Shown in pieces: positions 4,771 through 56,893 of a stretch of 64,000 nucleotides of DNA. The notes beneath the pieces were generated by a model. That model made no database searches, was not told the origin of the DNA, and was given only the letters and a program-made list of their open reading frames with translations. Every line of letters starts with the position of its first letter. The stretch's first letter is position 1. The stretch covers positions 14,074,001-14,138,000 of the forward strand of contig CM102285.1 in assembly GCA_046563655.1 (NCBI GenBank). The letters are read 5' to 3'. The translations under genes were made by a program, and so were the position numbers. Origin of the DNA: Yuukianura sp. NJ FZ-2021 (taxonomy: Eukaryota).

Positions 4771-6806
4771 TTACTGTGTTTTTGGTCTTGCACGAGGTTC
4801 AGGCTCGTCATTAGTAACATTAACATTAATGTCAGTAAGCGATTCTGTTGTTGTCAAATCAGGGAGTGAATCGGATGGTCGCTGCGATTCGATTTCTTCT
4901 GGGTTCAGGTCACTGTCTACAGGTTTGTCACTCTCAGCAATGAACGTGGAGAATCGTACACTTAATTTTGGTTTTAACTTGGCCACGGAAGCTTCCTGTA
5001 CTGGAATTCGTAGGATTCCGGATGGTATGCCTGACGCTGGACAGGAATCGTTGACTGGAGACGACGACTGGGAAGGATCTGTCGGAAATCCGAAATTTTG
5101 TTCGAGGTTTCTAAGTTTTTGCTTCATTTTGTCAATTCTTGATTTTAGTTGATCAATCTTAGACGTTGACGCACACTCCTGGATGTCTGCTGGACTTGGA
5201 CGAGTTCTGGTTGAACTTTTCGGATACTGACCTTGTAGAAGTCCTTGGACAACCGATTCGAGCTGGTCTACTTGCTCTTCCAAGTCGTTTGTTGGCACAT
5301 TCTTGTCAACATTTTCATTACCGGTATCGACTATACTTGAGGAGGCCGCTGCTGAGAGAACGTTGCAGTTAAAGTTCAAGTCTTCTTGGGATATTTCCAA
5401 ATCTTCTGCTTTCTCAAGCATCAGCGCATCAACATGCTTAATTTCCGAATCCATATGAATCGCTGATCCTTGAATGGCCTGCAAAGACCCTCTGATGTCC
5501 AGATCTGTCTCAAGAGATCCTTCAAGCCTTTGATGCAGTTGACACTGTTCAATGTCTTGATTCAAAAGTTCTTCTTCAATTAATCGCTGGATTTCAAATT
5601 CAGCTCCGATGGTAAGCTGAGGACAACTTTTGGATCCGCCTGGAACAGAAGAAGCTTCGGTGATCCCGTCGTCGGATATGTCATCAAGCTCATCTTCACT
5701 GAATTCATCCGAGTCGTAAAGATTTTGACTGTCAAACACTGCACTCTTCGCTTTAGCTGCAGCCAATTGCCTTCTCCATGTCAACGACTTTTCAATGAAA
5801 GAATCGGTTAGCGGATCACTTGATGTTGCTGACGTTGGATCTTGGACTGGTGAACAAGCATCGGCAGCACTTTCGGTCAACTTCAATTTTCCAGTGCTCT
5901 GAGACTTTTTGAAGCTTGGTCCTGAGCCAGAACTTAAAATTCCTTTCATGATTTCGACTGCCAGTCCAGTTCCTACTGGCGCAGCACAAAAGTAGATCTG
6001 TGATAAATCAAATCGATAGTTTTCAAACTTAGTTAGCATTAATGTGATACGTTATGTAGATCAGATTGACATTTTTGTTAGTCTTACTAAACGTAGACGA
6101 CAGTTGGGATGAACCTGGACTCGGATTGTTTCTTTGTACTTGGTACCGTATGCCTTCTGAGTTAGCGATGCCAGGTCAATTGCTACTTCATTCCAGCCGT
6201 TGTCCAGGGTAATTGGAACATGACAGGAAAACGTTTTTACGCGTGAAGTTTTGTAGGCATTGGAGAACAAGAACCGTCTTCTGTTAGAAGTGTCGTCGAT
6301 GATCTGAAAGTTATCCCAGAATGTCACCCATGTTGACGTAAACTTGACGTCGTGACGAACGCCAACGGTCAGGAGCTGACCGTTAGCTGAGTCAATTGAT
6401 AAAGGCGTACCTTACCTGGACGGTAAAAGCTACATTCCTGTTTAAGTTCTTGATGACAAAGACCAGGTAGGGCAGTGTTATACCCAAACTTAGAAATGGC
6501 GGACTGGGCGTAGTGATGTAGGTGGAGTGAAGGTTCCCCATAGCGTACAGATCTAGTGCCATGTTCTTATCCTCGTCAAAAATCCGGCGTATTTCTCCTC
6601 TTCGTTCCTTGAACAGCAAAAAAAAACGTTTAGATTTATTGGAGAAACGTTTAGAGCAAGGATTATGGTTTTAATTTTTAGTTTTTGAAAACCTGTCTCT
6701 CCCAAATCGACAGCGGTGATTCCATTGTTGCATAGAAAATGGAAACGAATCCGATGGCTGGATATCCCCCGAAAATCGTTTCTCTCTCCCCACGTTCCAC
6801 CTCCAT
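4771..6806 (-). CDS. CFAP20/Bug22-family (DUF667) domain protein with a ~400-aa acidic, coiled-coil C-terminal extension
   Basis: Four exons: ATG 6806 ...YPAIGFVSIFYATMESPLSIWERQ | ...GEIRRIFDED...LGITLPYLVFVIKNL | IIDDTSNRRRFLFSN...LDNGWNEVAIDLASLTQKAYGTKYKETIRVQVHPNCRLRL | IYFC... The last exon (5997-4771) stays open for ~408 codons. Confidence 0.8.
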
Positions 6807-7734
6807 TCCACATAAAATTTAGAAAAACACTACGCTCAGTGACTTGCCAAACGTTCTTCAGTTACTTACCTGTGCGAAACCGTTTTGTCAGGAAGTCTAG
6901 AAAATAAAAATATAAACAAAGGAGTTTTAAATCAATTGAATTAAATTTAAATTGGGCATGGCGACAGAATTCGGACTTCCGCGAGTTTTTCCACGGAAAA
7001 TCAAAGCCAACACCCCTATCAAGTGCGAGTACTTGTATACTAATTACTGTTTTGGTTTGTTAATTTAAGTAAGTTAGCTTTAATTAAGGTTAAAATTTAA
7101 ATAAAACCTAAAGTTAAAGTTAAAGTCTAAATTGAAAAGTCAACATTCCAAAAAAAAATTGAAAGCTATTGTTCGTAAATTACCATTTCCAGACTGGGGC
7201 AACGCGAGACGATTGTCTCAAAGCTAAAACTCCTGTTAAAAATTGCGCGAAAATTTTAAACCACACCGCCGAATTTTTTTTTGTAGAAGTCAACAAAAAA
7301 TGAAACTGAAAAATTCGATTTTGTTTTGATTTTTTTGACTCTTGATTGTTTTGTCCAGTTCTCCAGTTCTTCCAGTCAAATCAAAAGTCCCTGTCAAATC
7401 TACAGCCTTATCACTTCGTCTTTGAGGAAGAAGGTAATAAGTCCAAGCCAGTTGAAGAAAGGGAAACAGGAAACAGCAATAACAGTAAAATTTTTGATTT
7501 CGGACTTTGAATTTGAATTGATTTTTTGATAAATCAAAATTTTGATTGGCTCTTTGTTCTCTTTTGTACAGTTTTCACATAAACGGCCGTGCAGGGTCAA
7601 TTGGTTAACTTGATTCAGTCGTACTAGGTAGCTAAGAATACGGTAAGCTACTACACTCAGCATTTAAACGGTTTTATTTATTTGTGTTAAGTTAACTCAA
7701 TTTGTTGTACTTTGCACCTTCAGCTGCGTTCAAA

Positions 7735-9483
7735 ATGGCAAGTGAAACGGAGCTGAAAAAGTACTGGGAGAAACAGCAACTGATCAAAGTCAAAGTACCG
7801 GATTTAAAAGCCTATTTGAAATCAGTCGGACTGCCAATGGCTGGAGAACATTCAAATATTGCCAAAAGAGTTGGGATGTGGATGGATGTCAAATTCTTGG
7901 ATTTATTCGTCACTCAGGAGAACGGAGAAAAGAAGACACCATTTACTCTAAAGCAACCAGAATTACGAAAAATCGTTGCTCAGTTGGGTATGGATCCAAC
8001 AGGCGACAAGGATGAGTTGTACGATCTACTCATTGAGCATTTGAAGAAAAAGAAAGACGGGAAAGGCCCTGGAACATCCTCATCCGCTGGAAGTTCTGCC
8101 TCAGCATCGTCTGAATCCATCGGGGTTACAACGGCTAAGCAAATTCTAGAAATGCAAGATGATCTGGAAGCTGTGCTGAGTGTCTCAGGAATCAACATCA
8201 CTACGGCCTCGTCAGTCGGAAACATGCGAAAAGCTTATCTGAAGCTCTCTCTCCTAATTCACCCGGATAAGTTGCAGTCTGAGTTTCCTGAAGCAACAAA
8301 GGCTTTTCAATGTTTAGTAAACGCCTACGAACGCCTGTCTCAACCGGAATTGTTCTTGGAAGAAGAGAAGGAGACCAAGAAGACCAAAGAAAAGAAGATT
8401 ATGAGGTCAAACGATGGTTGTCATCGCACTGGAATTTTTTGTCCACGGTGTCGCGGCGAGTGGGGACTGCCTGACAGCGGCGTGGAGCCGTTCGAGTACA
8501 ACTTCATGATGATGGGTCTCAAGACTTACAATTGCGCCGGTTGCCTGTTTGAATTTGGCTGTATGACGGCACTCCACAAATGTCCACTGTGTCGCAAACC
8601 ATTTGAGTATCATCCCACCGACTACCACCGTAAAATTTTATGTGGCAATGCCAAATGCAAGACAGAATTTGGATTCTGGGTGTTCACTGTCTCTGAACGG
8701 AAGGAAAAAGAGTACAGACAGGAAATCAGGAAGAAGCAGGAAGAACGATTGAAGAAAAAGGAGCAATTGGCTGACAGATCGAAACGAGCTAAAGCTCGTG
8801 GGACGGATGCTGAAATTGGAGCTAAAGGGAAAGACAAACTTTTTCTGCTGAATCTACTTGATGACTGTCCCAAATGTGGTGAAGAAGTGGACAGTTCATA
8901 TGATGACAGAAAAGAACATTTGATGAATTGCAACGATCAGCGTAAGATGGACGCTTACGCGAAACAATTGAAGCAGCGAGAGGCAGCTGAAGAGAAAAAG
9001 AAGAAACTGCAAGAAGCACAAGAAGAGGCCCAGATTGCTTCGTCGTGGGATTTTCTTGGCGGGAAAACCAGTGACCTTTGGCTCCTCAGTGAAAAACAAC
9101 TGAAGATCATGTGCGAATCTTACCAAATCAGCACTGACAAAGCAAGCAAAGATGAACTGATCGCTGCCATAGTGAGACACAAGAATGCTGTGGATTCTAA
9201 ACGGATGTTGACCCAAGGCGGTGAAACGGGGGAACTCGCTCCTGGATCTTCAAAACGTCAGAAAACGTTGCGGCCGGAAGATTTGCCGAGCAACATGGAG
9301 ACAATGAGTGTGGCTCAACTCAAGTCCGTCGCAGCTTCATTTGGAATTGTGACAACCAAAACTACTAAAGATGGAATCATATCTCAAATTGAACAAGAGT
9401 GCTTTGGAAAAGATGAACCAATTCTACGATTGACTGATGGAAAGGCCAAGGGGAAGACCAATGCCAAGAAAAAGTTGAAGTAA
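7735..9483 (+). CDS. Intronless 582-aa J-domain protein with four SAP/HeH-like motifs, Cys-rich zinc-binding clusters and coiled coils
   Basis: caaaATGg at 7735. J-domain MRKAYLKLSLLIHPDK...ATKAFQCLVNAYERLS with HPD at 8260-8268. Cys motifs CPRC, CAGC, CPLC, CGNAKC and CPKC..H..C. Basic C-terminus KKKLK. AATAAA at 9651. Confidence 0.8.
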   Translation: MASETELKKYWEKQQLIKVKVPDLKAYLKSVGLPMAGEHSNIAKRVGMWMDVKFLDLFVTQENGEKKTPFTLKQPELRKIVAQLGMDPTGDKDELYDLLIEHLKKKKDGKGPGTSSSAGSSASASSESIGVTTAKQILEMQDDLEAVLSVSGINITTASSVGNMRKAYLKLSLLIHPDKLQSEFPEATKAFQCLVNAYERLSQPELFLEEEKETKKTKEKKIMRSNDGCHRTGIFCPRCRGEWGLPDSGVEPFEYNFMMMGLKTYNCAGCLFEFGCMTALHKCPLCRKPFEYHPTDYHRKILCGNAKCKTEFGFWVFTVSERKEKEYRQEIRKKQEERLKKKEQLADRSKRAKARGTDAEIGAKGKDKLFLLNLLDDCPKCGEEVDSSYDDRKEHLMNCNDQRKMDAYAKQLKQREAAEEKKKKLQEAQEEAQIASSWDFLGGKTSDLWLLSEKQLKIMCESYQISTDKASKDELIAAIVRHKNAVDSKRMLTQGGETGELAPGSSKRQKTLRPEDLPSNMETMSVAQLKSVAASFGIVTTKTTKDGIISQIEQECFGKDEPILRLTDGKAKGKTNAKKKLK

Positions 9484-9949
9484 GAAGTTAATTTAGTTGT
9501 CCAGGAAGTCCAACAACCGGTATGTTTTTTTAAGCGATTTCCATTCTTACCGAATACCGATTTTTAGCTTTAACTAGTTTCTTAATTCCTTTCGCAGTAA
9601 GTTTCTCACCCCCATAAGTGTATTTAGATAGTAACAAACAACATTTGTGGAATAAAATTAATTTCAAGTAATCAATTAATCAAAATTAATGAAGCTCTAG
9701 ATTAATTATTGTTGATTAGAATGCGTTTTGGTTGGGGCAAAGAGAGAAAAGGCGGGAAATCCTGATTTGAATCGGAGGAAAGTGAGGAATTTGTGATGAT
9801 AAAATCTGGAACATCTTTTTCATCATTCGATGTGTCAATTTATCGTTGTTGTGCTGTCGTTACCGGTGTATTTATTTACCAGCTCGTTTGGTCTTGGTCA
9901 TTCATCGCAGAACGATAATTGAGAGTTCAATTAGATTCACGACACCGAA

Positions 9950-12900
9950 ATGGCGAGTTCGAATGCTACTCCGGATAAGGTAAAACAAAATTCAACGTTT
10001 ACTCACTGAGAGACTGACAAGTGAAATTTGTCAAAAACATTTGTAAAGCTCAATTTTGATTTTTGTAGGTTCAAGCAGTTCCGGAGTCTATCAATTTTCC
10101 GGGTGAAGAAGATAAAATCTTGGGGCTGTGGGCTGAACTAGACGTTTTTCAAAACTGCCTACGTCAGTCCGCTGGAAAACCACGCTACTCATTCTACGAT
10201 GGGCCGCCATTTGCAACTGGATTGCCTCATTATGGTCATCTTCTAGCAGGAACCATCAAGGTATTAAGCAAAGATCGAAGTAAATCACGGTCACCTAAGA
10301 AACGTATCAATGGATTGTGATTTTTTGGTCATCAGGACATTGTGACTCGATTCGCTCATCAGAACGGTTTCCACGTTGAGCGACGGTTCGGATGGGACAC
10401 TCACGGTCTGCCGGTAGAATATGAGGTACGTTTTTACACAGAGAATCCAAAAACTTCTGATTTTTTCAGTTTGGTACAAACTTTTCTTTTCACAGATCGA
10501 TAAATCGTTGGGGATCAAGGGACCGGAAGACGTTGCCCGGATGGGGATCAAAGCCTACAACGACGAATGTCGTAAAATTGTCATGCGATATGCTGGAGAG
10601 TGGGAAACCATTGTTTCACGAATGGGAAGATGGATTGATTTCAAGAACGACTATAAAACGCTGTATCCATCGTTCATGGAATCCGTTTGGTGGGTTTTCA
10701 AGCAACTGCATTCCAAAGGACTCGTCTATCGTGGGTTCAAGGTCATGCCATACTCTACTGCTTGTTGCACTCCATTGTCCAACTTTGAAATGAGTCAAAA
10801 CTACAAAGACGTAGTGGATCCTGCCGTCATCGTGTCTTTTCCATTGCTTTCAAGGAATAGCACTGTCAGTCTTCTGGCTTGGACAACTACTCCTTGGACA
10901 TTACCATCGAACTTGGCTCTGTGCGTTCATCCTACGCATAGTTACGTCCATGTCAAGGGTACGAAGTTTTAAAATACAAACTACGATTAAAATCCAACTG
11001 AACTTCGATAATCTTAAGACTTTTTTTTTAAATCACTGGGGTTTAATTTTCTAGAAACATCGAGTGGCAAGGAGTACATCATGATGGAGGCGAGGTTGGA
11101 CGCACTTTTCAAGAAAGAGGATGAGTACACCATTCTGGAGAAGTTTCCTGGAAGCAAGCTAAAAGATGAGAAGTATGAGCCGATACTGCCATACTTCGCT
11201 GAACTGGCAGCACAAGGTGCTTTTCGAGTACTTGTGGACGATTACGTTACGCAGGATTCTGGAACTGGAGTGGTTCATATGGCACCATATTTTGGAGCTG
11301 ACGATTACAGGCAAGCAAAAATTCATCAAATTGAATTCAAAACGTTAACAAAACGAAAATTAATTTTTTAATTTTTTTTTGTTTCATAGGATCTCGTTAG
11401 CCGCTGGTGTGATCCGCAAAGACCAAGAAATGATTTGTCCGGTTGATTCAAAAGGCCATTTTCTTCCGCCCGTGACAGACTTTGTTGGAGTTTATGTCAA
11501 GGATGCTGACAAGGGCATTTGCCATCTTCTGAAGAAAAATGGACGTTTAGTTCATCAATCGACGATCAAGCACAGTTATCCATTTTGTTGGCGCTCTGAC
11601 ACTCCGTTGATCTACAGAGCCATTCCATCTTGGTTCATCCGAGTAGAAACCCTTGTTGATCGACTTCTGGAAAACAATTCAAAAACTTACTGGGTTCCTG
11701 ACTTTGTCAAAGAAAAGAGATTTGGAAACTGGTTGAGAGATGCTAGAGATTGGGCTGTGAGTAGAAATCGATACTGGGGAACTCCTTTGCCCATTTGGAG
11801 TTCAGAAGACGGCGAAGAAGTAGTTGTTATTGGAAGTTTAGAAGAACTGGCAACACTTTCAGGAAAACCGGCACCGGAGGATTTGCATCGAGAAACGGTA
11901 GATGAAATTGTCATTCCATCCAAAACTCCAGGAAATCCGCCGCTCCGAAGAGTTCCGGAAGTGTTTGACTGCTGGTTCGAATCAGGCTCAATGCCTTATG
12001 CTCAGGTCCATTATCCATTTGAACGAAAAGGTGAGCGCCAATTTTCAAAATTCTGATCCAAAATTTCTGAAATTTTGGAATTCAAAATGTTCAACCTTCT
12101 TTTTTGTTTTTAGATGAATTTGAACAGTCGTTTCCGGCTGACTTCATCGCCGAAGGAATTGATCAAACACGCGGTTGGTTTTACACTTTGCTGGTCATTT
12201 CGACAGCACTTTTTGACAAACCGCCGTTCAAGAACCTCGTTGTGAACGGTCTTGTGCTGGCCGGAGATGGACAAAAGATGTCCAAACGGAAGAAGAACTA
12301 TCCGGATCCACTTGATGTCATCACAAAGCATGGAGCAGACGCACTTCGTCTCTATCTCATCAACTCTCCGGTTGTCAAGGCCGAAAATCTACGGTTCCAG
12401 GAACAAGGAGTCAAGGATCTTATCAAAGACGTCTTCTTACCTTGGTAACTTCAACTCAAAATTGAAGATTTTGAACTTCTGGAAAATGAATTTTTTTAAA
12501 TGTCGTTTTTACAACGTAGGTACAATGCCTATCGCTTTTTTGTCCAAAACGTCATTCGAGTTGATGTGGAAGACGGAATTTATCTGCAATATGACGGAGA
12601 ACTGGCGTCGTTTCGAAACCTGCCTCCAGGCGACTGGAACGTGATGGATCGATGGGTTCTATCGGCAGTGCAGTCTCTGGTGGCTTGGTTCCATCAAGAA
12701 ATGGAAGCGTATCGACTGTACACTGTTATTCCACGACTCGTGAAGTTCGTTGATCAGCTGACCAATTGGTACGTTCGGCTCAACAGGAGGAGAATCAAGG
12801 TAAGCTTTGCTTAAATCTTTGACTTTTTTTGAATTTTGAAATTGAATTTCACTTTTTTGAATTTTGTTATAAATTTTTAATTTTTTGGTGAATAGGGAGA

Positions 12901-14100
12901 AGATGGAGACGCCGAAAGCAAGAAGGCGCTGGAAGTACTTTTTACTGTACTGGAAACTTTGAATCGCTTGATGGCTCCGTTCACTCCGTTCATTACTGAG
13001 CACATGTTCCAAAACCTAAGACGTCTCCGTCCAACATCTCCTGGAGATTCCATTCACTATCTGATGCTGCCCAAACCATTGTGCGTTTTTTGAAATTTTG
13101 AAAAAAGTTGGCATTTTGAATGTAAAGTTTGTTTTTATGTATGCAGAGATTGGCTGGTTGATCCTGAAACGGAAGAGGCAGTTGGTGTCATGCAGTCGGT
13201 TATCAATTTGGGACGACTGGCAAGAGACAGAGCCAATTTGCCGATCAAATCGCCATTGGCTGAAGTTATTGTTGTCCATACTGATCAAAATGTGCTGGAT
13301 GAGGCGAGACGACTGGAGAAGTACATTCTGGAAGAACTGAATGTCAGAACACTTACAGTTAGCAAGGACAAGGCAGCATATAATGTCCGACTTTCGGCTG
13401 AGCCGGATCACAAAGCTCTTGGTCAACGATTCAAGAAGGAATTCAAAGCGATTCTGGCTGGAGTGAAGGTAAATGTTGATATAAGAATTTTCGCACAATT
13501 TTTTTGAAAAATTGTAAAATCTTTGTTAAAAAAAAATTTTGATTTTTTTTTATAGGCTCTTGGTAGTGAAGCCCTTGAAGAATGTCTGGAGAAGAACGGA
13601 GTGACAGTTTGTGGCCAGTGGATTGAACTGTCTGAACTTCATGTGAAGTTTGTAGTGGACGAGACATCAAGTTCAAAGGACTTGGAAGTGACATCGTCCG
13701 GTCCACTCCTTGTTATTCTTTCGAAGAAGAGAGACCAGACTCTATTGGATGAAGGAGTTGCCCGGGAAGTCATCAATCGGATGCAAAAACTAAGGAAGAA
13801 GGCTGGACTTGTTCCGACTGATCCAGTCGTGATTCACTACAGTGCTGAAGGAGCCCTGGAAGAAGTCATGGTGTCTCAAAAAGCATTTATCCAGAAGAGC
13901 GTTCGAACGGAACTTATTCCACTCAAAGACGTCCCTGCCGATACAGTTTACATTATAAAAGAAGACTTCAGTGACGTGGGTTTTCATTCTACATACTAAA
14001 CATATTAATTGAACTGCGTACAATTAATCGATTAACCCTTTGTTTCTTGCAGATCAAAGAAATGGGATCGCTAACTGTAGGACTTGTGAGTTCTCGGTAA
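9950..14100 (+). CDS. IARS1: Cytoplasmic isoleucyl-tRNA synthetase, ~12 exons, ~1085 aa
   Basis: [14 protein letters not shown] (HIGH motif), [11 protein letters not shown] editing motif, [26 protein letters not shown] and KMSKR. ATG at 9950, TAA at 14098-14100. Confidence 0.97.
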
Positions 14101-14546: not shown

Positions 14547-17500
14547 ATGCGACGAAGTAAGGCGAAAACGAAAGGACAAGGAGATGGGAATGAATTAGAA
14601 AGTAAGTTTTGTCTACTTTTTGTTTTATCGTCGATTAGATGTTCAGAACGTAAGCTAAATTTCTTGTATTGACCGTGACCTTGGTTTGTTTTCTTTTCCA
14701 GTATTGAAACGAGAACTGTCAAAAGCTCGAGCGAAAGGAGATTTCAAAGAAGTGTCGAACTTACATAACCGGATTGGCATTTTGTATCGAGAGATTTCCC
14801 TTTATGAAGAAGCACTTGAAGAACATGAGGTTATCAAATCATTTGAATCAGAATCTATCTAAGCTTTATCTTCACTTAGCCTACGTTTTGATTGATTTGC
14901 AGGAAGAAGCGATTATCACAAAGAAGTATTTTCCAAACGATGTCCTTGGTCTTGCCGTGGCCCTTCGAGCGAAAGGCGAAGTGTACATTGACATGAAGGA
15001 AGAAGAAAAGGCTCTGCCGCTCATCAAGGAGTTTTTACGTAATTGGTGAAAAATATCCTACGCTTCCGGATGATTTTGTAATTTTGTTGACCTCTGAATA
15101 CAATTTTTCAGGTCTGTCACAATCGGTGGAGAATTTGGTAGAACAACAAAGGGCTCATGTCACCCTTGGTCGCGTATACCTTTCTCTGGCTCTCCGTTTT
15201 CTAGAAGATGGACTGGAAGACAAGAAGATACAGTGCCTCAATAAGGCTGAACGAGAGTTCTTGATTGCCAAAGATCTGGCCAGTAATCCCCAAAAGTATG
15301 ACATATGACAGTCTAAATCTATCTCCTGATGTCGAATGTTTCAAACTGGCACCGTTTTTCATCTGAATTGCAGAATGCGGATATCCGATGCCGAATCTGT
15401 GGAAATGCGGTGCGGCGTCTACATCAATCTTTTCATAGTTCTGGACTGTGCTGGACGTGAAGAAGACAGTATAACTTACCTCCGGAAAGCAGTTGAACTG
15501 GCCGAAACGTATTCCCTTCACGATCTCCTCTTCCGAGCTCACCTTAGTTTTTACGACGTTTATTTCCGGAAGAAACAGTTTGAACAAGCCGTTAACTCTG
15601 CCCATGCAGCTGCCAGTACTGCCAAATTACTTCGAGATCCACAACTGCAGGCTGAGGCTGAAATACTGCAAGCTAAAGCAAACTTTCTCAAGAACCATGT
15701 CGAAAGTGGTGTAAGTGTGCTCAAACGAATACGAAAAGACAGAAAGAAGTTGTCATTTGTTGAAGATGAGCTTGAACCGCTGCTTCGATCGGGTGTTCGG
15801 ATAATTCGTACCGAAGATAAGCTGCACAAGTGTTCCATTCGATCGGAAAAATTGAAACTTTACGAAATCCTTGGTGACAAGTACGTAGAAATTGGAAATT
15901 TTCTTCAAGCAACTGTCAACTATGAACTTGCCCTCAAGGTATGACTTTCTGTAAAAATATTTTCTACAATTTAAACTAATTATCACTATCACAGTAATTA
16001 ACAAGTTTTATACACTTTCCAGACTCTAGAAGAAAGTCACACCGGAAACGACAAGAAGAAGGCTGCACTGCTGTTCTCATTGGCTGAAACGCTGAACGAC
16101 ATGGGGAAATTCAGTGAAGCCAAAAACGTTTATCTGACGGAACTGCGTCTTCACGAAGACTCGAATCCATCGGAAGCTTTCAAAACGCAGACCAGACTGT
16201 GTTCTTTACTGGAGAAAGGAGATTTTCCAGAAGAAGAAGTTTTCCAAGCACATCGCTCTGCACTGAACTTCGCCAAGGACAGTGGAAGTCCAGCCAAAGA
16301 ACTTGTAGCGCTTGACAACTATTCAACATTCCTCAAAAGCAAAAATAGAAGACTGGAGTTGGGTGAGTACAGGTTGACAATTAAAAACAGGAAGCGATTG
16401 AAGTATCGGAAGTACATTTATTTCCATTGAAGTATTGGCAGCATATTGAAGTATTTTTTAACTTTTCAGATAAAGTGCTTAGGCAAGTGGAGAAATTGAA
16501 AGAAAAGTATCCGTTTATCGAAGAAGAGAATTCAGAAAAGACTGATGATGGTGGAAATCACTCTGACGGTGACAGCGGGAGTGAAATTGATCTCAATCAA
16601 CTGACATCCGATGAAGGCGAAAGTGACGATCCAGAAGAAAGTGTCCCAAGGGCTATCACAGTGGCCAAGAGGAAGTTCAGGGTCAACGAAAAAGGCGAAA
16701 CGCCGCTTCACGTATGTCAACTTCAACTTTGTAGAACGAAATGCTACAAACAGGAAACGTTTTTTTACCTGTCCATTTTTGAATTTTTTCCCAGGTTGCC
16801 GCCAAAAAAGGTGATTTGAAAGTAGTATCGCGGTTGCTTCGTCAAGGTCACGATGTCAACCCTCGTGACTCCGCTGGGTGGATTCCACTTCACGAAGCTG
16901 CCAATTTCGGTCACTTAGCCGTTGTAGAAGAACTTATCAAAAATGGAGCTCGGATTAACGATCAACCTGCTGGACCAAATTGTGACAAGATCACTCCTCT
17001 TCACGACTCCGCTGCAAACGGACACCTTGATGTCGTGGACCTCCTTATCCGAAAAGGAGCCAACGTTTTACTCAAAGATGCCAATGGAAACTACCCAATC
17101 GACAGCCTTCTAATCTGCTTCATTCGGAGTAAAAACGATCTGACATCAGAAGAGAAGCAGCGATTCGAAAAGACTTTGGATCTTGTCAAGAACAAAATGG
17201 CTCAAAATGGCAAGATTTACACGAGAGAGCACGAGAAAAGAGCAAGGAAGAAAGCCAAAGAAGGTGACGACGGGACAAGAGATGAACCAAGTTTTTCTGT
17301 CCAAGTTGACAAAGGAGCCAAGATTCCAGTCAAAGCGGTCGTAGATGACTTTGATCCGGATGATGGTGAAGATGCTGTCGATTTGTATTCGAAGACTATG
17401 AAAGGGCTACGTGGCACTGGAAAGAAGCGGGAGGAGGAACTACTGGAATCAACTGGAACAGAGAGAACTTCCAGGAGAACTAAAAGTGCCCAAGCGCTGA

Positions 17501-18861
17501 TTTCAGAAGATGCTTATGTAGATGATGATTGGTTGGACGATGATCTTGGAATGAGAGGCAGAATCAAACGAAAACGGGATGACAGAAGTGACGAAGTGGA
17601 AGTGTTCCCGAGAAGGAAGAAAGAAAACAAGCGCCGTGACGAAGGCGACACGATTGAAGTTGACGACGACGATGTGACCGTGGTTCATGAAGAGCCTGGG
17701 ACCAGAAGAAGTACAAGAAGGACCAAAAGTCAAAAAACGAAGTTCCCTCTAAGGAAAAAACCGTCCAGGGTCCATATCGTTTCAAGTGACAGTGACGACG
17801 ACGACAGTGGTCGAACGGAGCGAAGTGTAATCGCTGATTCTGATCAGGAAGAAGAGATTCGACCTTATTCCAGCCCAATCGCTGGAACTTCTACTGCTTT
17901 ACAAGACGAAGTGATGGGCGTTGACTTCTCATCGCTTATTTCAGATTCAGAAGAAGTACCAGAAATTGCCAGCACATCACACTCCAGCCGTTCACGAGGT
18001 TTTGACACTGACAGAGACAGAGAAGTGGTACAGGTCTCACCGAGACCTTCCACTTTATCTTCAAATGGACCAGCAGTTTCAGTATCATCATCATCATCGT
18101 CTTCTACATCTTTAGTATCTTTCAGTCGTCCGGACATAAGAGTCAAAGATGTCAAAGCTCTGTGCAACTCACTCCAGTGTCAATATACTTTAAAAGAAAT
18201 CAACCTCAGTGGAGCTCTGTTGTTCGACGAAGGAATTAAATCGCTCAAAACGGTACTGCCTACGCTCAAATCGCTGGAAATTCTTGACCTTTCGCTCAAC
18301 GGTGTCACCACTGAGGGTCTCAATCATCTCCGAGACGGTTACAGTAACAAATCAAATCAAATTGTAAGTCATGAAAAAGAGTAAAAGCAAGTGAAAAGTT
18401 GCAATTTTTCAAAAATTACCATTTTAAAAAAAATGCAATTTTTCGAAAACTTTCAGTTTGTTGATTTTTTTTAGAATCATATCGTATCCTTGAATCTCAA
18501 CTACAATCCACTTGGACAAGGCGCTGGACAGTCGCTGACTGAACTTTTAGCACGGTTCGTAAATCTCAAAAAACTGTTTCTGGCTGATGTCGATTTGAGT
18601 CCAAACGCTTTTGGAGATTCAACGCTGCCAGCACTCCTTGCCAGTAAGAAATTTTTATGACATTCACCAGTGAAAAATGATTGTTCTGAACAGATACTTT
18701 AATGCCACATGTTTCCAGAACTGCAACTGGAGGAACTGGATCTTCGGTATAACGAAGTCGGTGAAACTGAAAAGCAAGTGCTGCTGGACTCTGGAGTGTT
18801 TAATCAAATGCAAATCTGGAACAAAAAGAAGTTCGATCCGCAATTTCCATTCAGACTTTGA
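14547..18861 (+). CDS. TONSL: Tonsoku-like protein (TPR, ankyrin, acidic linker, LRR)
   Basis: N-terminal TPRs (EQQRAHVTLGRVY), ankyrin repeats (VNEKGETPLH, GWIPLHEAANFGH, CDKITPLHDSAANGH), DDWLDDDL motif and C-terminal LRRs (LEILDLSLN, LEELDLRYN). TGA at 18859-18861. Confidence 0.9.
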
Positions 18862-47725: not shown

Positions 47726-50700
47726 ATGAGCTCGGAAACTCCCGGAGTTACGTCCACTTCTGGAGAAAACGTTTCTCCAATTCCAAGCATGTCACGAGTT
47801 CGTAGCTTCTCGGATGAAATCACAATCTATGAAATCGCAAATCCTATTCCATCTAAACCGATCCTAAAACCACTAAGCTTCGAGCTCCCACAAGACACAA
47901 GTTTCTTCAAAACGTCACCTATCAAAATATCACCTCAAAAGTTATCTCCAATGAGCAGTAGTTGTGGAAGTCAGAATCCAAAGATCTTGAGTCCCTCGAC
48001 TCTATCAATACTCAATCCACTACGTGACACTGTCCATAGTCCAGCAGGGGAACAACTACCTCAATTTGTTCCTTCTCCATCATCTCATAATGTTCTGCTG
48101 ATACCTTCTAAGCCAGAACTGACTGTCACGGTAGTAAGTAGTCCAACACAATCTGAAGGATCGACGAATACTTTGCAAACATCGACAACGTTACGATCAA
48201 GATCACCAGTCCAAGTCCTTCCTGCTCCAATTCCGCATTCCAGTCCTCCGGAACAGCCGAAACTGGAACGAGACTTGGAAAATGCTGCGACTTTTGCGAG
48301 TAAACCGGAAGTTGAGGAAGAAAAAGTAACGACTGTGAGAAGCAGAAGACAGCGACGTGTTTTTATGCCTCACCAACAAAAATCAATGTACAGGACGAGA
48401 ACGATGGTGAAGGCGAGTCTTGCTGCTCAAAATGGTAAGATTAACAATTTTTTGTTTGAACTTTTTCGACATTTTGGTTAGATAAAACGTTTTCTTGATT
48501 TCAGAAAAAGACGAACTGGCTTCTCAGAAAGTAAAGATTGAAGTGCCTTCAGCAGTGGTGAAGCCAAGCAGTAAAGCTTTGAATGTGAGCTTACCATCTC
48601 CGACTCTCCCAAGTTCTAGGAGCGGGAGAAAACGAAGTCAACGTAAATTGTCAACAGCGGAACAACTTCAACAGCTAAGAGAAGATCATTCAATTGATCT
48701 GGAAAGTCCAGGCTCAATTTTAAAACTTTTAAATCTAAAACATATTCTCACAAAACACAACTTTTCTCGTCTGCCTTTGGAAGATCAAATGAGACTGGTC
48801 CAACTCCTTCCTGACGTTGACACTGTTAAGGAAAAAGACAAACCTGATCGGTAAGCTAATTATTTACTATCCATTGAGAGTGAAATACTAAGATGTTGAA
48901 TTTTTGTAGACTCAGGGAAGATGCTTTGGACAATTTATTTTACAATAAAGCCTGTGACGACTGGAAAACGAGACTCATCGCTGGAGAGTTCACTCCTGAG
49001 AGCAAGCTAAAACAGAAACAGGAAACAGAAAGGGAAAAGGCGAAAGTGGATCCCTGGAAGGTTTGTTACTAATTGCAATCGTTAATTGTATTTTTAACCT
49101 AGTTATGCTTTTTTTTTTAAATATGTACACTCATGTTTTGTTTTATTGTTTTTGTTTAGAAAAAGCACTTTGAACCGATTTGGGGATTCAAGGATGTGAT
49201 TAGGCTTCCGAATGAGCCACCAAAACCTTTACCTTCGTCCACCGTCACCAAGGAAGAGCCACCATTAGCCCCACCAGAACCAGAACCACCAATTGCACAG
49301 CCGGAGAAGGAAGAATCTCAAGTAAAAGTTACAATTTCCGAAGTAAATGTCACTGAAGTCCCAGAAATAGACACTCCACCGGTTCCTGTTCCACAACCTC
49401 CGTCGATTCCTCAATCCCCGTCATCAACTCCTGGAAAACGTCCGTCTGATTCTCATCTGATAGACCAAGAAGATGAAATTCTCTCAAAACGAATTCGCAT
49501 AACTCCTCCCACTCCTTCTCCGCCTCTGGAAGATCAAGATCAAGGTTAGTTTTACTAATTGAATTACTGCAATTAACACCAATAAGGGCAAACTAATTAT
49601 TATTTTGAGCTTATCGATCCCGAGTTAAAAAGTTTTGTTACTTTTACCAGGATCAGCGAAAGAAGCAGAGAAAAGTGTAGCGATTTCTAACGAAGATGAA
49701 GGTGACAACAGTTCTGCTCCGTTGCTGGACTTTGTTGAAGTGGAGGAAGAAGTTAGCGAGTTCAGTGGAACACCAATTCCAATGGTAGATAACGAAGTGA
49801 CAATAGAAAACTCTCCGTACGGCTCATCGTTATGTCCAGATGAATCTCCAGAAGTTGAGTATGTTCTTCAATCCGTCACAGTGGAAGAGGAAGATAAATG
49901 TCCAGAAGACTTTTCTGAAGAAGTGTATGTAGAGACAACTCCAGCTTCAGAATTAACCGAGGAAGTGTCCACGAGTATAAGGAATCTGAATGATATCGGC
50001 TGTTTGCAAGAGACGGAGATACTGGAAACCTTACCGGAAGGAATAGAAGAGCAAATTAATGCAGAAATACAAGAAATGGTGGCTAATGCGGCCACGGCAG
50101 AGTACAGTTCTACCATGGAAAGGCAGGATGAAGCCCAAGACCAAATCCAAGGTCAACAAAAGCTGGAGGAAGGCCAGGTTGAAGTGGAACTGGATAGTGT
50201 GCAGGAACAACTGGAAATCTCTGTTAGTTTGCAAGAGGAACAGAAGCCTGTCATGGACGACTCACCTTCGATTGATGCCAACTTGGAGGCACAAGAACTT
50301 CGTGTCCAAGACGACCTCCAAGATCAACCGAGTTTACAACAGGATGCACAGATTCAGCAAAGTTTCCAGGAACAGCCTCAAACGTCGTCAATTTTCCAGA
50401 AAAATGAAGAAGTTCGGTCAGATTTTCAACAGGCTGCGGATAAAATTGAAGATAGTGTACTGGAGATGGAACCAATCCAAGTAAAACCGGAGACACATCA
50501 GGACGAAGTTCCGAATATAGCAATAGAAGTACCGCTAGCAATGTCGGTACCCATTACGGATCCTCTACCGGTACTGACCGAAACGGTACCATCTTCGGCT
50601 GAGGTATCGTTGGTCAACACGAGTACATCCTCTGTGGTAGTGAGTGACGTTTTAGTGTCGTCTCAAACCGGATCAATTCCAATGTCACCTCTGATGGCTA

Positions 50701-53700
50701 CAAGTCCTATCCGCCTTCCAATGTCAATGTGTCAGGACAACGTCGTAACAGCTGATCGGCTCCTCCAATCACAATCAAGAATTGTCCACATGGTTACCCT
50801 GTCAGCTCCAAATGGTCCACAGTCATCTTCCGTCCGACTGGCTCCTCCTCTACAACCCCAACAACAGCCCCCACTTCAACCGATATCGATACCGATACCG
50901 ATATCGGTGAAGTCTGTTTCCGGACCCAAGGAACCGCCAGTTGTTATTCGCAGTATCGTCCCGAAAGTTCTGTCGGAGTTTATTCCGGTACAACCAAGGG
51001 CTTTAGCTTCTACTGGACAACAACCGACGTTGAGTCCACTGTCAAAGGTGAATGGGCCTGGAATTCCTGGAATTCAAAATCCAAGTTCACCTGGAAATGT
51101 AAGTAGTCTACTTTGTAGCAACAAGAAGAGCAACCGCCAGAAATCCACAAGACAGGTACGACCAGAGTCCGTCCATGGACGGATCAGCTGACCTTCTCTG
51201 TCCATTCTCCTCCGTCTTTTTCTCATTTCAACAGAGCCACTCAGGCAACTACACTACTGCTACTATGTCTTGTCTCTTGGCGATTCGGCTTACTTCTATC
51301 ACAGTTTTCTAGTATTTTAGAAAAATAGGAGAGAGTCTATGAGTTTTATTACGTTTGACCGATTTTGTTTAAAAACGTTGTTAACTTGAGTTTTTTTTTA
51401 TTTTCGGTTTGGTTTTTCCAGGCTAAGCCAAAATCAAATACGGTTCCACCGGGGTCCGTCAATTTGGACAGATCGTATGAAATTTGCAAACAAGTGATTG
51501 AAAATTCGCCAAATCGGATGCATTTACAGAAACAATTGGTCAAACCGCAACCTCCTCCGCTAACTCCGAACAGTCGAATACCGAGACAGTAAGTTTTTGA
51601 TTACAATTTACAGAAGAACTTCTCTTTTAGCAACTTCGTTCTTGTCGTCCGAAATGCTCAACTTCGCTTTCGCGTGGGGTGAAGTTTCAAGTGACCGAAA
51701 ATGGTCCGATACCTTTGATGCAGTGTTGCTGGATATCCACTTTTTTGACGTTTCGTCCACTGTCCAGGATAATATATTTCATCCGGTTTTATCCGGAAGA
51801 AATGGCTGGATAAAATGGATAGAACTGTTCCGGATAAAATTTATCCATCCGAAAGCACTGCAGTGATGTGGCGTTTAATTGGTATCGGGGAGAGTTGCTA
51901 AACGAGAAGTTTTTCTGTAATGCGAACTACTAATTTTAAGATTCTTTGGGATAGATTTAGGTTAATTTTTGGTTTTATTGTAGGGAAATCGGAAGTGGTG
52001 ATGCAACTGCTGTGATTCAGATGAATAGAAGAGTGTCGACACCAACCCTGATCCAGTCCAACTTAGGTCAAATGCAAATGACAGGAGGTGTTGGTGGGCC
52101 TGGCCAGAAAATGATGCTGGTAAATCATCAAGGAATGGCTCCACTCATACGCCCCATCCAACAACAACTCACTCCGACTCTCAACCACCACCAAATCGTT
52201 GTAAGTTCTGCCAGCACCTCAAATGGAATAGGCGGTTCAAGGGCTCTGGGTATGAATGTCACATTCACTACTAAGCACAATAATCCCACAACTAACAACA
52301 ACCAAACAACCACGCTCACTTCCACTCCCAGTATCATTACACCCCAGCAGCTAGCACTGCTCCTCCAACAGCAGCAGCAGCATCAGCATTCCAACCATCT
52401 CTCAAGGTCACCCACGCAGCAAGGTCAGCAGGCACTGCCACTTCAGAGACAACGAACGCCGTTATTTATCACGCGACCTCCTCAGACTGCGCAGGGACAG
52501 CAGTCAGCACAAGCGAAAATTTTGAACACTTCGCAGTTTTCACAGCAGTCGAGAATCGTTTCACCGCAGTTAGTCCAGTTTCAACAATCTCAACGATCAG
52601 CTGTGCAGGGACAACAAGAAGCTATGCAGTTTCCTGTTAGAGCTCAGATCATGACATCAAATGGAGAGACACTGACGATTCATCGGGCTGCTGCTGGAAT
52701 GCAACCAGTTAGAGTCACTTCGCCAATACGCATGAATACTGGTGACATAGGAAAAGGAAGTAACCAATCACTAACGATTATCAATCGGTCAACTAACTTT
52801 GGCGGCGGAGATAATCGAGTCCAAACGATTCAACAGCCAATCAATGAAACTCAACCGTCATCAAGTCAGTCAAATCCTGCGCAGAACTTGGCAGATTTCA
52901 TAACTAATCAATGGACAGCTTCCGGTATTCGTCCGATTTCTCCTCTTGCATTTGATACTTCTGGGGGAGGTGACAGGGTGATTCTGCAAGGTCGCATACC
53001 AACAACACCCAACAAATCTAGAGAATCTCAACAACAACAACAGAATCAACAGCAACAGCATCCCAGCTCTCCTCAACAACAACAGAATCCTAGTCATCAT
53101 CATCATCAACTCAATGTCTCTGAAATCTTCATTCCGAGTAATCAAAGATCACACTCAATTCCAAACACTCAGCATCAGCATCATCATCAGCAGTTAGGGT
53201 TAGAGGTGATGGAAGGTCATGAAGCACTAGCTGAAGGTCAAGGTGGTGGTGGGCAATTTAGTGTAATCAAGCACCATAAGAATAATTCTGGCGGTGTAGA
53301 GTTCATTCACATTGATAGAACAGCTGTTGAACGTCTCAATTCACAACAACAACAACAACAGCATGTAAATTCAACTAATACTGGCAACAGTAATGCTCAT
53401 ACTAACCACAACTATCCCCGCTCAGTTGTTGAAGGTGGTGGTAGTTTAGTACAACAGGTGAGGATAATCGACGATTATTAATCGACTATATCACGGTGTC
53501 TACGCTGTCAGAGACTTTGAATTCTGAATTTCCCGCGTTTATCCAGTTGACGATCTACCGTCAGTTCAATTGCATGTGGATATCCAATATCCAATCACAT
53601 ACATATCTCTGCTTATCTCTCCGTTGTGTGTCACCCTGTACACGTAAATGTCGCTTATCGCTGCATGTTCAACTTTATCCTAAATTCGATAAATCAACTA

Positions 53701-55010
53701 TCCTAACAGTTCGATAATTCTTGAATTCTTCCGACTTCTGTTGTCTGTACTGTTTGCTTATCGTATCTTATCATTTTGTTACATAATTATCTTATCGATT
53801 ATCCTGTCTTGTCGTTTATCTCATTGTCTTTTCGATTGTCTTGCCTAATTAATTACATTCTTATCTGGCTTCATACGATTCTTATCTTATTCTTATCTTG
53901 AAATATTTTTTTTGAAAATGTGTTTGAATTTTCTAAAGTTTTGTATTTTTGTAGAGCACGAGACTTGATGGACAAGGAGATCCGTTGCAGCAGCAGCACT
54001 ACGTCATTGTTCAGACGACGGGTAGCAACGGAATGCCGCAGAACTTGGTTTTACAAGCGTCGTTGCTCATGCCACCGCATCAGATAAAGGAAGAATCGAA
54101 AGATGCTGGAGGACCTCCAAGAGCCGCCAGTGCTCCTCCGACGAATCCAACTATGCTTATTACGCAGCATCAGCAACAACAACAACAGCTTCAACAGGGA
54201 CAGTCGAACTGTAACGTCCAACAGGAAAACAAACTCATTTCGCTTCCGGTGGCTTTTCAAGACTTTTCGGGACTCAGGGTAAGCAGAGCATATTTGAGAG
54301 ATATGAAGATAGTTTTCTGGCGATTTTGGGTAAAGAAGATAACTTATCGAATTATCTCCTGTTTTTTTCTTTGTGTTCAGGTTTTCAAAGATGAATCCGG
54401 AGGAAGCGAAGATTCCAGAAGAATGGACTACTGTATGACAAATACTCCGCCTGGTTACACCCTAACTCCAGTCAGTTCTGCTCCCGGACCACAAGAAATA
54501 GTCCGAGTTCTGAGTCGAAGTTCCACCGGAAGTCCAGACGTCTGGAACTACAGTCCAGTCCCCTCCAGTGGTCATATTGTGAATGTGAACTTAAATGGAT
54601 CCAGTGGATCCGCTAGAATAATCCCTGGACAACATCCTGTCATCAGCATTCCAGATACAACGAATGGATCCTCCAGTTGTAGTGGAATGTCAAGTGACTT
54701 TGACCTATTCAGTGCAATTGCCTCAACGGGAGGAGGGACTGAGAGTATCAAAGTTGAGAACAATGGTGACACAAGGTCAATTCTTATCCCTATGTCCGTA
54801 GCTATGACGAATAACAATCGACAGCATTTTCATCAACCACTGTCCAGTATTGGACAACAAGGACCCTCTCCCACACATCCGTCGTCCAATCAAAATTGCA
54901 TTTGTGACTTACGAGCCATGACGACTTGTCGAAAATGTGGAGCTTACTCACATTCTGACTGTATTATGAAGAATGGTATGGAACTGTGTACGAGTTGTGT
55001 CATTCGATAG
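47726..55010 (+). CDS. Asx: Additional sex combs (ASXL family): DEUBAD domain, Q-rich regions, C-terminal PHD-like finger
   Basis: IDLESPGSIL...LVQLLPDVD, FYNKACDDWKTRLIAGEFTPE, VDPWK|KKHFEPIWG, PPGSVNLDRSYEICKQVI and terminal CICDLRAMTTCRKCGAYSHSDCI...LCTSCVIR. Confidence 0.93.
51721..51860. mobile_element. Short hAT-like MITE in an Asx intron
   Basis: Termini cagtg...cactg, internal (t)atccgg/ggata repeats, and 8-bp flanks ctttgatg / cagtgatg (6 of 8 identical; possible decayed TSD). Confidence 0.5.
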
Positions 55011-55916
55011 CTTATCGAGTTAAGATATATCGGTACTGTTCGGTAGACTATCGATTATCGAATTAAGATATCCATAGGGTTCGAGAGGCTATGGAATTGA
55101 GATTTCGGTAGAAATGCAAAGGCTTCGATACTCTGGAATTCTAATATTGGTTGAACTGAACTCGATAGCCTATCGATTTATCGAATTAAGATAACGGTAG
55201 AATTCGATAGTGTGAAAGGAAAACAAAGCAATTATCATCACAATTACTAATTGTTAACATAACTTAAAATTTTATGTTGTGGTGAACCGGTAAGGGACGA
55301 AGCGAAGAGGACGAAACCCACCCTAAATCCACATATGGAAACCCAGTTTTAGATTTTAGAGTGTATTAGAACGTGTTTTAAAATTTAGAAAAAGTTAGAA
55401 ACATGATTTCGAATTTAAAAAACTAAGTTTTAGATTTAAATTTTAAATAGTAAGGTTCAGATATAATTATGGAGAGGCTATTTTTGAATTATTGAAGAAA
55501 ATTATTCGTTGTAAACATCTCCATCAGCGCCAGCAATTGATATTGAAAACGCAACTTCAAAGTGTCTATCTCTGTCTATGTAAAAAAAAATGTTTGTTTT
55601 TTAAAATATGTGTTTCTGTGTTTTAGCACTTTTACTTTTTATGTTTGAGTTGCATGTTATTTTATAAATAGTCCGTTATTTAATAGTATAAGTGTTAATT
55701 AGTTTAATTAGTTGATGAATTATTTGTTGTATCGTCTGTTTTTTTAACTTTCATCTCCTCCCAGTTCAAATCCCGGAAATAAAACATCCAGTTCAACTTA
55801 TCACAAGAAAAACCGGCAAACCTCTGTTTTTTTTACTTTCCTGTGAATTCTGAAACTTTGGTAAATGCAAATGGAAACTGAAAAAGATTGTTCTTGAAAT
55901 TTCCCGAAAATTTTGC

Positions 55917-56893
55917 TTATAAGTTGAACTGTTGAATGGTTTCGGTAATTCTGGGATTTGTGAAGTAGTTTTCTTTCAAATCTTCAAGATGATTGTCAAA
56001 ATCAATTAGTTGACGGTAGGCTTTCGCTTGAATCAAAGCTGACACGGTGGACAGACTGCCTTGTTCGTCTGGGAGTAAACTTATTCGTGCTTCTTGGACC
56101 TTCAAAAAAGTATTTTGTGTTAAATATTTTCAGTACTTCGAATGTGAAGATGCTAGTTCAATTGTTATACTTTATTGACTTTGTACTTCAAATGATACTG
56201 ATTTCAATACCTTGAACTTTCCATCAGCATATTTGTAGATGATGAAAGGAGCTTCTTCCATGTTGGAATCCAATTTTTCGTTGTCAATCTACAACATGAA
56301 CAAAGTGGACTCACTAGTACAAGTATTCAGTTGATTTTTAGCATGTCAAGCATTTAGCATGTAATGAGGCTTACCATTACGACTATTACGTTAGGGTTAA
56401 CTTCTTGAAGCTTGTCGACAATACGAGACGCAATGAAATCTGGACTGTAAATGTTAAAAAAGGAATTAGAAGAAGAAAACAGTCCAGTAATGGCGTTGCA
56501 GTGGAACAATGTGCTTGCCTATGGTTATCAATGTCGTGATTTGCTTGATAGTATCCTACCACTTCCGTTTTGGAATCCTTACAATGCTGTTCCACCTAAT
56601 GATAAAAAATCAAAGTAAAATACTTTTATTACGAAGATTAATTGGAAAATACAAGGACAGGATTAGAACTTAAAAGAACTAACCTGTGCCAGTGCAATTT
56701 CCATCGTTGGAGTACAAAACTTGGACATGTTGATGTGTGTCAATGGAATGGCATCTTCACATAAGCAATGTTGACCCCCATGTTCATTGTCTGAAATTTT
56801 CCTGATGAGCAATCCATTGACGCTGAAGGCGGGATACTTCGTAGCATGCAGAACCATCTTCGCTATTGCTTCCAATTCAAACGACACTTCCAT
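55917..56893 (-). CDS. EMC8/9: ER membrane protein complex subunit 8/9 (UPF0172)
   Basis: AKMVLHATKYPAFSVNGLL, DAIPLTH, PTMEIALAQV, VVGYYQAN, LIDFDNHLED...TNP. Five exons. Confidence 0.92.

Follow-up and report, generated by a model that had tools for sequence, protein, structure and literature searches.

The stretch analysed here (hereafter the window) comprises 64,000 nucleotides of contig CM102285.1 of assembly GCA_046563655.1 (Yuukianura sp. NJ FZ-2021; forward-strand positions 14,074,001 to 14,138,000), and the gene under study is a single uninterrupted forward-strand frame that runs from an ATG at position 7735 to a TAA at 9481-9483 and encodes a J-domain protein of 582 residues. The features of the gene and of its surroundings are collected in Table 1, where X2 denotes one of the sequencing runs whose contigs were compared with the window.

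Table 1. Features of the J-protein gene, its encoded domains and its neighbourhood, in window coordinates.
Feature	Position	Strand	Details
5′ non-coding exon (minimum extent)	7572..7641	+	in an X2 contig 7723 follows directly on 7641; shorter arm of 70 letters
5′ untranslated region (UTR) intron, 81 nt, GT..AG	7642..7722	+	joint seen in X2; GTAAGC ... TTCAG in the sequence
Coding sequence without introns, 582 residues and stop	7735..9483	+	X2 contigs 7723-8334 and 8557-9651, no joint inside
SAP module 1	7735..7896	+	residues 1-54
SAP module 2	7921..8064	+	residues 63-110
J-domain	8116..8349	+	residues 128-205; HPD 176-178
Family-specific Cys/His domain	8398..8694	+	residues 222-320; 12 conserved ligands; predicted local distance difference test (pLDDT) 86-97 per ten-residue block
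Long antiparallel helical hairpin, Lys/Arg/Glu-rich	8695..9054	+	helices 321-371 and 402-440 in the model
CCHC beta-beta-alpha finger, UBZ-like, at the hairpin tip	8857..8937	+	residues 375-401; strands and helix 389-398
Helix-extension-helix (HeH)/SAP-like module 3	9064..9213	+	residues 444-493
HeH/SAP-like module 4	9271..9408	+	residues 513-558
Basic disordered tail	9430..9480	+	residues 566-582; 7 Lys/Arg in 561-580; pLDDT below 50
3′ UTR (minimum extent)	9484..9651	+	X2 contig extends to 9651; AATAAA close to the end
Upstream divergent gene	4774..6700	-	three CT..AC joints in X2: 5997>6088, 6303>6416, 6606>6692
Cytoplasmic isoleucyl-tRNA synthetase (IleRS), intron-split	10069..13978	+	X2 joints 10258>10334, 10423>10494, 10957>11054, 12028>12112; 9977>10067 immediately ahead of the coding match
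TPR/cohesin-loader-like exon	15330..15941	+	under the Pfam cut-off
Ankyrin-repeat protein gene	16783..18381	+	
Asx-type PHD_3 domain	49629..55010	+	E 5.6e-11
Heat-shock-element array	55886..55913		four overlapping matches
Open reading frame	56663..56923	-	

Two Pfam families are found above threshold in the protein, SAP (PF02037; 45.6 bits against a cut-off of 23.9, E 4.9e-12, in two stretches of which the best covers residues 72-104) and DnaJ (PF00226; 39.6 bits against 27.8, E 5.7e-10, residues 155-205), and the scan returns nothing else above threshold over the 582 residues. The His-Pro-Asp (HPD) motif, formed by H176, P177 and D178, does not vary among the 65 homologues aligned, and the helical J-domain fold is present in the predicted structure; with profile, motif and fold all in place, the protein is a member of the J-domain superfamily, and its J-domain is predicted to stimulate the Hsp70 ATPase. 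A sequence search of the PDB gives 31 matches at E ≤ 1, all of them confined to the J-domain. The AlphaFold2 model, built from the 65-sequence family alignment, has a mean pLDDT of 87.3 and a predicted template modelling score of 0.60, and low confidence is limited to the linkers at residues 111-124, 206-214 and about 495-512 and to the tail.

Comparison of the model with 48,161 PDB representatives in VIA-align assigns a fold to most of the chain. Residues 1-54 align with the SAP domain of Ku70 (score 7.0; 2.1 Å over 52 residues) and also with those of PIAS1, SF3B2 and DEK, residues 54/63-115 with the SAP domains of Hcc-1 (6.3) and SLX4 (5.8), and residues 121-213 with J-domains (11.0 and 10.2), while residues 319-444 align as a long antiparallel helical hairpin. 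Towards the C-terminus, residues 444-488 match the N-terminal HeH domain of Rho (6.4; 1.6 Å over 45 residues) and residues 513-558 the C-terminal part of T4 endonuclease VII (5.5). The initial annotation, which was made from the letters of the DNA, had described an intact HPD J-domain flanked by four similar SAP-like motifs, and these are indeed found at residues 19-37, 72-95, 451-475 and 524-548, the N-terminal pair above the Pfam cut-off and the C-terminal pair below it but HeH/SAP-like in the model comparison. The protein also contains charged helices and basic stretches, including the Lys-rich terminus noted at that stage, and DNA binding by the SAP modules is predicted.

Directly behind the J-domain lies a domain of about 100 residues that corresponds to no Pfam family. 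Ten of its ligands, C229, C236, C239, C267, C270, H281, C283, C286, C303 and C308, are invariant in all 65 homologues, and two more, C276 and H298, are kept in 90% or more of the 65 aligned rows. Because the central domain thus holds 12 ligands, it probably binds three zinc ions, and the CCHC finger one more. The previously described cluster of CPRC (from residue 236), CAGC (267), CPLC (283) and CGNAKC (303-308) is present as claimed and, again as claimed, departs from the DNAJA pattern: the motifs continue as CPRC-R, CAGC-L and CPLC-R with xGxG after none of them, and in the Pfam scan neither DnaJ_C nor DnaJ_CXXCXGXG matches, so the protein is not of the DNAJA type. A signature for the whole family can be written as a J-domain with, directly behind it, RSNxGC...CPRC...YNF.M.G.K.Y.C..C...FG..TA.H.CP.C...F.Y...D.HR...C....C...FGF, and the window protein carries it.

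The four ligands of the CCHC finger, C378 and C381 of the CPKC knuckle together with H395 and C399, are likewise invariant (65/65), in agreement with the finger called initially. In the model the finger consists of two short strands and a helix, which places C-x2-C and H-x3-C on a beta-beta-alpha unit as in fingers of the UBZ4 and NEMO/optineurin types. The best whole-finger match in the PDB is to the optineurin zinc finger, weakly, at E 0.27 with the single sequence and 0.023 with a profile, and the profile gives further weak matches to SLX4 (E 1) and ZUFSP (E 1.9); the Pfam scan of the protein has no UBZ match. All domain calls of the initial annotation stand, although the resemblance of the finger to ubiquitin-binding fingers, the helical hairpin and the odd phylogenetic distribution described below had escaped it.

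A word-indexed protein search finds 98 homologues at E ≤ 0.001, and the order of parts is the same in alignments of 18 and 65 near-full-length members ranging from arthropods to algae. With the zinc domain alone (105 residues), a phmmer scan of 1.84 billion representatives, clustered at 50% identity, returns 245 proteins at E ≤ 0.001, of which 162 reach 1e-10 and 44 reach 1e-30, the best having E 2.3e-44. In a Pfam scan of 40 of the 150 listed matches, picked as the longest and the weakest, DnaJ (E ≤ 0.001) lies just N-terminal of the zinc domain in 34 and SAP occurs in 13; the six without DnaJ, which may be fragments, have no further domain save one SAP, and other credible partner domains are found in 0 of the 40. 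Since 34 of the 40 carry DnaJ but only 13 carry SAP, the pair of J-domain and zinc domain forms the family core, with SAP modules as frequent additions. Members with the same architecture as the window protein include LOC110853154 of Folsomia candida, LOC119082060 of Bradysia coprophila, Bhyg_16788 of Pseudolycoriella hygida and H257_03886 of Aphanomyces astaci, all uncharacterised and titled hypothetical protein in their entries; the arthropod proteins in this set are 63-66% identical to the window protein. None of the 98 homologues is a characterised DNAJA, DNAJB or DNAJC protein, and the search brought up no characterised full-length DNAJC orthologue, which bears out the view that the architecture lies outside the standard animal classes. 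In the open literature (supplements and non-open journals lay outside the search) neither a paper on a protein combining SAP and J-domain nor one naming six database identifiers of family members was found. The suggestion of an undescribed system holds in that no paper on the family was found, but not as a peculiarity of this animal, as the family is large and mostly protist, with 245 clusters.

Two members depart from the common plan. In several A. astaci strain assemblies the gene model is fused to a nocturnin-like EEP domain (P0243 / P0437; the EEP part matches PDB nocturnin at E 1.1e-36), and this fusion was considered as a functional clue and set aside as probably an artefact of gene modelling, because the reference strain has two separate genes, H257_03886 and H257_03892, six locus tags apart, and the fused model is without part of the finger. 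A second protein, P0258 (954 residues), has an acidic N-terminal extension and two KOW-like copies that flank the standard core (Pfam KOW2_Spt5 E 3.5e-4, under the cut-off), and its C-terminal module is apparently duplicated.

Named members occur in the springtail Folsomia candida, the sciarid flies Bradysia coprophila, B. odoriphaga and Pseudolycoriella hygida, the oomycetes Aphanomyces astaci and A. stellatus, the choanoflagellate Didymoeca costata, the chrysophyte Mallomonas annulata, the eustigmatophyte Nannochloropsis salina and the green alga Cymbomonas tetramitiformis; to these may be added a sequence labelled 'Nk52', which we take to be a nucleariid, and an 'EG_transcript' entry, presumably from Euglena. 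Among the nearest clusters in the Atlas, which hold very few records, Ctenophora and Haptophyta are the commonest taxa. Springtails and sciarid flies are the only named animals, which gives the gene a patchy look within this group, and no vertebrate, Drosophila, nematode, land-plant or dikaryan fungal name appears among the named matches, although most matches are unnamed and the absence is unproven. The window protein is 63-68% identical to the arthropod proteins and at most 47% identical to all others, the A. astaci cluster representative P0243 standing at 47%.

In trees of 65 and 86 rows the arthropod proteins form one clade, with support of 100 and 99 in the Shimodaira-Hasegawa-like approximate likelihood ratio test (SH-aLRT), which is sister to Aphanomyces (99) and then to the nucleariid group with P0015 (99), while in both trees the choanoflagellate lies far from the arthropods, amid algal sequences. 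An 18-row tree, in which Aphanomyces carries a long-branch warning, separates a springtail-type group (the window protein, Folsomia and one further protein; 82/83) from a sciarid group (92/99). Forcing the arthropods and Didymoeca together costs 222.8 log-likelihood units and is rejected by the approximately unbiased test (p 3e-5), a constraint whose group was named after the tree had been seen and to which hidden paralogy would give the same result. As the arthropod genes adjoin Aphanomyces and not the choanoflagellate, the topology suggests gene transfer or hidden paralogy. Possible histories are an early, single acquisition from a protist and later disappearance from most hexapods, acquisition by either of the two soil arthropod lineages with transfer to the other, or an ancient paralogue retained in few lineages. 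According to the available part of a report, canonical terpene synthases occur in Sciaridae, Collembola and Acariformes and their transfer from Acariformes to Sciaridae has been proposed (PMC11665903); for the J-protein gene that case may be taken as a precedent, not as evidence.

The gene is part of the host genome. Its guanine-cytosine content of 0.43 matches that of the rest of the window, and it is tiled by the contigs of four runs, which come from two studies; one of these contigs, from the run X5 of the second study and a different coded organism, bridges positions 6485-7974 and so crosses the spacer upstream and enters the coding sequence for 240 bases. The gene is flanked by a cytoplasmic IleRS gene, one exon of which (230 residues) shares 75% identity with Orchesella, 73% with both Folsomia and Daphnia, and 67-68% with the mosquito proteins listed. 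In a tree of 31 rows the window IleRS and one metagenome protein are sister to Orchesella and Folsomia, in a four-row clade with an SH-aLRT of 100. Because its IleRS groups with those of springtails, the window is, on sequence grounds, animal DNA of a springtail or a close entognathan relative, and because ordinary animal genes (IleRS, the ankyrin-repeat gene and the Asx-type PHD domain) share it, the J-protein locus is placed in host DNA. A sciarid fly as the source, suggested by the best named match of the J-protein, is rejected on the IleRS identities and tree. For the divergent gene upstream, the open reading frame 4774-6051 (-; 426 residues) matches no Pfam family, and a search limited to proteins of 234-746 residues gives it no homologue at E ≤ 1e-5 and hence no hint of the taxon.

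Evidence of transcription comes from the contigs of run X2, whose record reads only 'DNA?'. Compared over window positions 5000-12500, these contigs are without the introns of three adjacent genes and contain nine joints with canonical GT..AG (or CT..AC) ends. Three of the joints belong to the divergent gene on the minus strand, five to IleRS or the sequence immediately ahead of it, and the ninth, 7641>7723, precedes the ATG of the J-protein gene; the runs X1 and X3 from the same sample have none of them. Because canonical introns are missing from its contigs, unlike those of X1 and X3, X2 behaves like a cDNA library and we infer that it is cDNA-derived; the J-protein gene would therefore be transcribed, with an intron in its 5′ UTR and a transcript reaching to about 9651 beside an AATAAA signal. 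In a sample of 40 of the 430 differences between runs, eight fall in the coding sequence and all eight are synonymous, consistent with purifying selection. Heat-shock elements are absent upstream of the coding sequence, as 0 of the 58 window-wide matches fall within 6900-7735. Elsewhere in the window, an array in which GAA and TTC units alternate contains four overlapping matches to the pattern GAAnnTTCnnGAA (0-1 mismatch); on one side of it stands the Asx-like gene and on the other the open reading frame 56663-56923, which we take to resemble EMC8/9 (UPF0172). Within the J-protein gene itself, about 33 bases at 9042-9075, coding for the conserved W-D/E-F-L-G-G, are common to other contigs of X2 and X5 with both flanks diverging, and could reflect a paralogue, a repeat or chance.

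By triggering ATP hydrolysis in Hsp70, J-domains load the chaperone on anything that other parts of the J-protein have bound; SAP motifs are DNA-binding elements, with RNA as the ligand in some proteins, and CCHC fingers of the UBZ4 and NEMO/optineurin kinds bind ubiquitin. The account that we favour, with a probability of about one half, is a functional, expressed host gene whose product, a nuclear J-domain co-chaperone of class C (type III), would bring Hsp70 to DNA or chromatin and possibly read ubiquitin. The recruitment of Hsp70 to chromatin or nucleic acids, already proposed initially, would follow from the domain content. In such a mechanism, the four SAP/HeH modules, two at each end, and the basic tail would keep the protein bound to nuclear DNA or chromatin, and the CCHC finger, at the tip of a hairpin stalk of about 50 residues, would read a mark, most likely ubiquitin, that the target carries. 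The J-domain, its HPD being intact, would then trigger ATP hydrolysis and load Hsp70 on the DNA-bound protein for remodelling or removal, and the three-zinc domain directly behind it, the hallmark of the family, would probably offer a surface for clients or partners. A role at chromatin and ubiquitin is suggested by RAD18, FAN1 and SLX4, which combine SAP with a UBZ-type finger, as described in the accessible parts of PMC3273806 and PMC4201288, and by the J-protein ZRF1/DNAJC2, which binds ubiquitinated H2A, as stated in the portion of PMC8393682 that is available.

The proposed logic would be closest to that of ZRF1 (DNAJC2/MPP11), which is likewise a class-C J-protein at chromatin and, in the same portion of that source, reads monoubiquitinated H2A (PMC8393682). 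ZRF1 carries a J-domain, a ubiquitin-binding region and two SANT domains and also works on the ribosome, whereas the homology to the window protein is limited to the J-domain: the latter has no SANT or Myb match in Pfam, and ZRF1 has no SAP module, three-zinc domain or CCHC finger. RAD18, FAN1 and SLX4 are DNA-damage scaffolds that carry a UBZ4-type CCHC finger and a SAP domain; their effector is a RING ligase or a nuclease where that of the window protein is a J-domain, and no significant sequence relationship to them was found. Type I DnaJ/DNAJA proteins also have a Cys-rich zinc-binding domain after the J-domain, yet, as far as the accessible text of PMC4428491 goes, that of DnaJ has four CXXC motifs and two zinc ions as opposed to 12 conserved Cys/His ligands here, and the window protein has no GxG after CxxC, no G/F region and no DnaJ C-terminal domains. 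DNAJC24/DPH4 again has a small metal-binding domain directly C-terminal of its J-domain, and its J-domain is a weak PDB match (2l6l, E 0.12). The CSL finger has four Cys in about 60 residues, and zf-CSL has no match in the Pfam scan of the window protein.

Several points weigh against this proposal. All members of the family are uncharacterised, the case for transcription is an interpretation of spliced contigs from a single run recorded as 'DNA?', and the synonymous count is a sample, 40 of 430 differences. Ubiquitin recognition by the finger, although ubiquitin would be its most likely mark, is the weakest step of the mechanism: its likeness to ubiquitin-binding fingers is statistically weak (optineurin 0.023, SLX4 E 1), most matches of its profile cover only the CPxCG knuckle and are mostly C2H2 designs, and the Asp that fingers of the RAD18 and WRNIP1 UBZ4 type carry two residues after the His is not conserved here. 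SAP and HeH folds, moreover, bind RNA as well (Rho-N, SARNP), so the ligand need not be DNA, and the modules might address RNA or ribonucleoproteins in the manner of SARNP/Hcc-1, SF3B2 and the Rho N-terminal domain, with Hsp70 remodelling messenger ribonucleoproteins or spliceosomal complexes; we regard this as doubtful, if the most credible of the alternatives. Another ligand is suggested by MANF, whose SAP domain, according to the available part of the source, binds Hsp70 itself, associating with ADP-bound BiP at its nucleotide-binding domain (PMC6358605), and by this precedent the modules here could turn the protein into a two-handed Hsp70-cycle regulator that plays no part on nucleic acids. 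The precedent is a single one from the lumen of the endoplasmic reticulum, and binding to a polymer or chromatin accounts better for the presence of four modules, basic tails and a CCHC finger, which leaves a purely Hsp70-directed function very improbable. Marginally less improbable, but still far from likely, is a tether at the nuclear envelope or lamina, in which C-terminal modules of the HeH/LEM type (Ish1/Heh family) would hold chromatin at the nuclear periphery with the help of Hsp70. Pfam Ish1 ('putative nuclear envelope organisation protein') matches residues 452-478 at E 9e-05, and some homologues have precomputed PF12949 HeH or PF07498 Rho_N assignments, but the Ish1 match is under the cut-off (23.2 against 26.6 bits), the model has no spare helix outside the assigned domains to span a membrane, and the HeH fold by itself does not imply localisation at the envelope.

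The zinc domain invites a different assignment, as a RING- or FYVE-like cross-brace that would make the protein a ubiquitin ligase or ligase recruiter and couple Hsp70 to the ubiquitylation of chromatin-bound clients. Its only PDB sequence matches are RING fingers (TRIM56 at E 0.2, TRIM23, TRIM25 and NOT4), the best match of its profile is the FYVE domain of Hrs (E 0.18, over the C..C...FG..T..H.C..C..F core), and Foldseek lists TRAF6, HOIP RBR and KAP1 at E about 1. Every one of these matches is non-significant, however, Pfam has no RING, IBR or FYVE match, and by inspection of the alignment the ligand spacing is unlike the canonical RING C3HC4, so a cross-brace is distinctly unlikely. The same searches also count against the preferred account of a chromatin-directed Hsp70 recruiter, as the fold of the domain is matched significantly by nothing in Foldseek, VIA-align, the PDB sequence and profile searches or the Atlas: Foldseek with the whole model finds no PDB match at E ≤ 0.001, the wide VIA-align comparison of the whole model has no row within residues 225-320, its rows being filled by other domains, and the Atlas search with the zinc domain gives no usable match. 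Such missing matches do not show a new fold, and a model of residues 215-410 built without an alignment has a mean pLDDT of 45.9, too low for use. That the locus is no working host gene at all, but contamination, an assembly chimera or a decaying recent insertion, might be argued from a coding sequence without introns amid intron-rich neighbours and from nearest non-animal relatives that are protists. This is scarcely credible in view of the spliced 5′ UTR intron in X2, the tiling of gene and flank by contigs of two studies, the normal base composition, an intact frame with every invariant residue kept, the synonymous changes in all eight sampled coding differences, and orthologues in Folsomia and three sciarid species, of which the Folsomia and two Bradysia copies stand on contigs of 3.7-28.5 Mb. 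A bolder version of the chromatin account, which as a whole is unlikely though less so than the cross-brace, holds that the gene derives from a protist, its closest relatives being those of Aphanomyces oomycetes and the nucleariid, was captured by soil arthropods, is common to springtails and sciarid flies in a manner reminiscent of the terpene-synthase transfers reported for these taxa, and encodes a chromatin surveillance J-protein of a kind not recognised before: clamped on DNA, with the finger reading ubiquitin, it would present marked DNA-bound proteins through the three-zinc domain to Hsp70 for extraction. Were this true, the clients could be, for example, trapped or cross-linked complexes, and the system would be an Hsp70-based counterpart of the p97/SPRTN route.

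As an effector the J-domain is commonplace; what is unusual is how the protein would be targeted, the zinc domain that fits no known class, and the distribution among animals. The animal distribution and the tree together make the gene a candidate for transfer from another eukaryote to arthropods or within the arthropods, parallel to the terpene synthases as far as the available part of that report describes them (PMC11665903). It is J-domain proteins that direct Hsp70 to its sites of action, and chromatin is a known site for only a few of them, such as ZRF1/DNAJC2; DNAJC9 is also a J-protein that acts there. To these the family would add an architecture in which a J-domain is combined with four tethers of the DNA type, a finger resembling UBZ and a three-zinc domain that is invariant but unclassified, and through it a connection of Hsp70 with ubiquitin-marked chromatin or with DNA repair can be put to the test.

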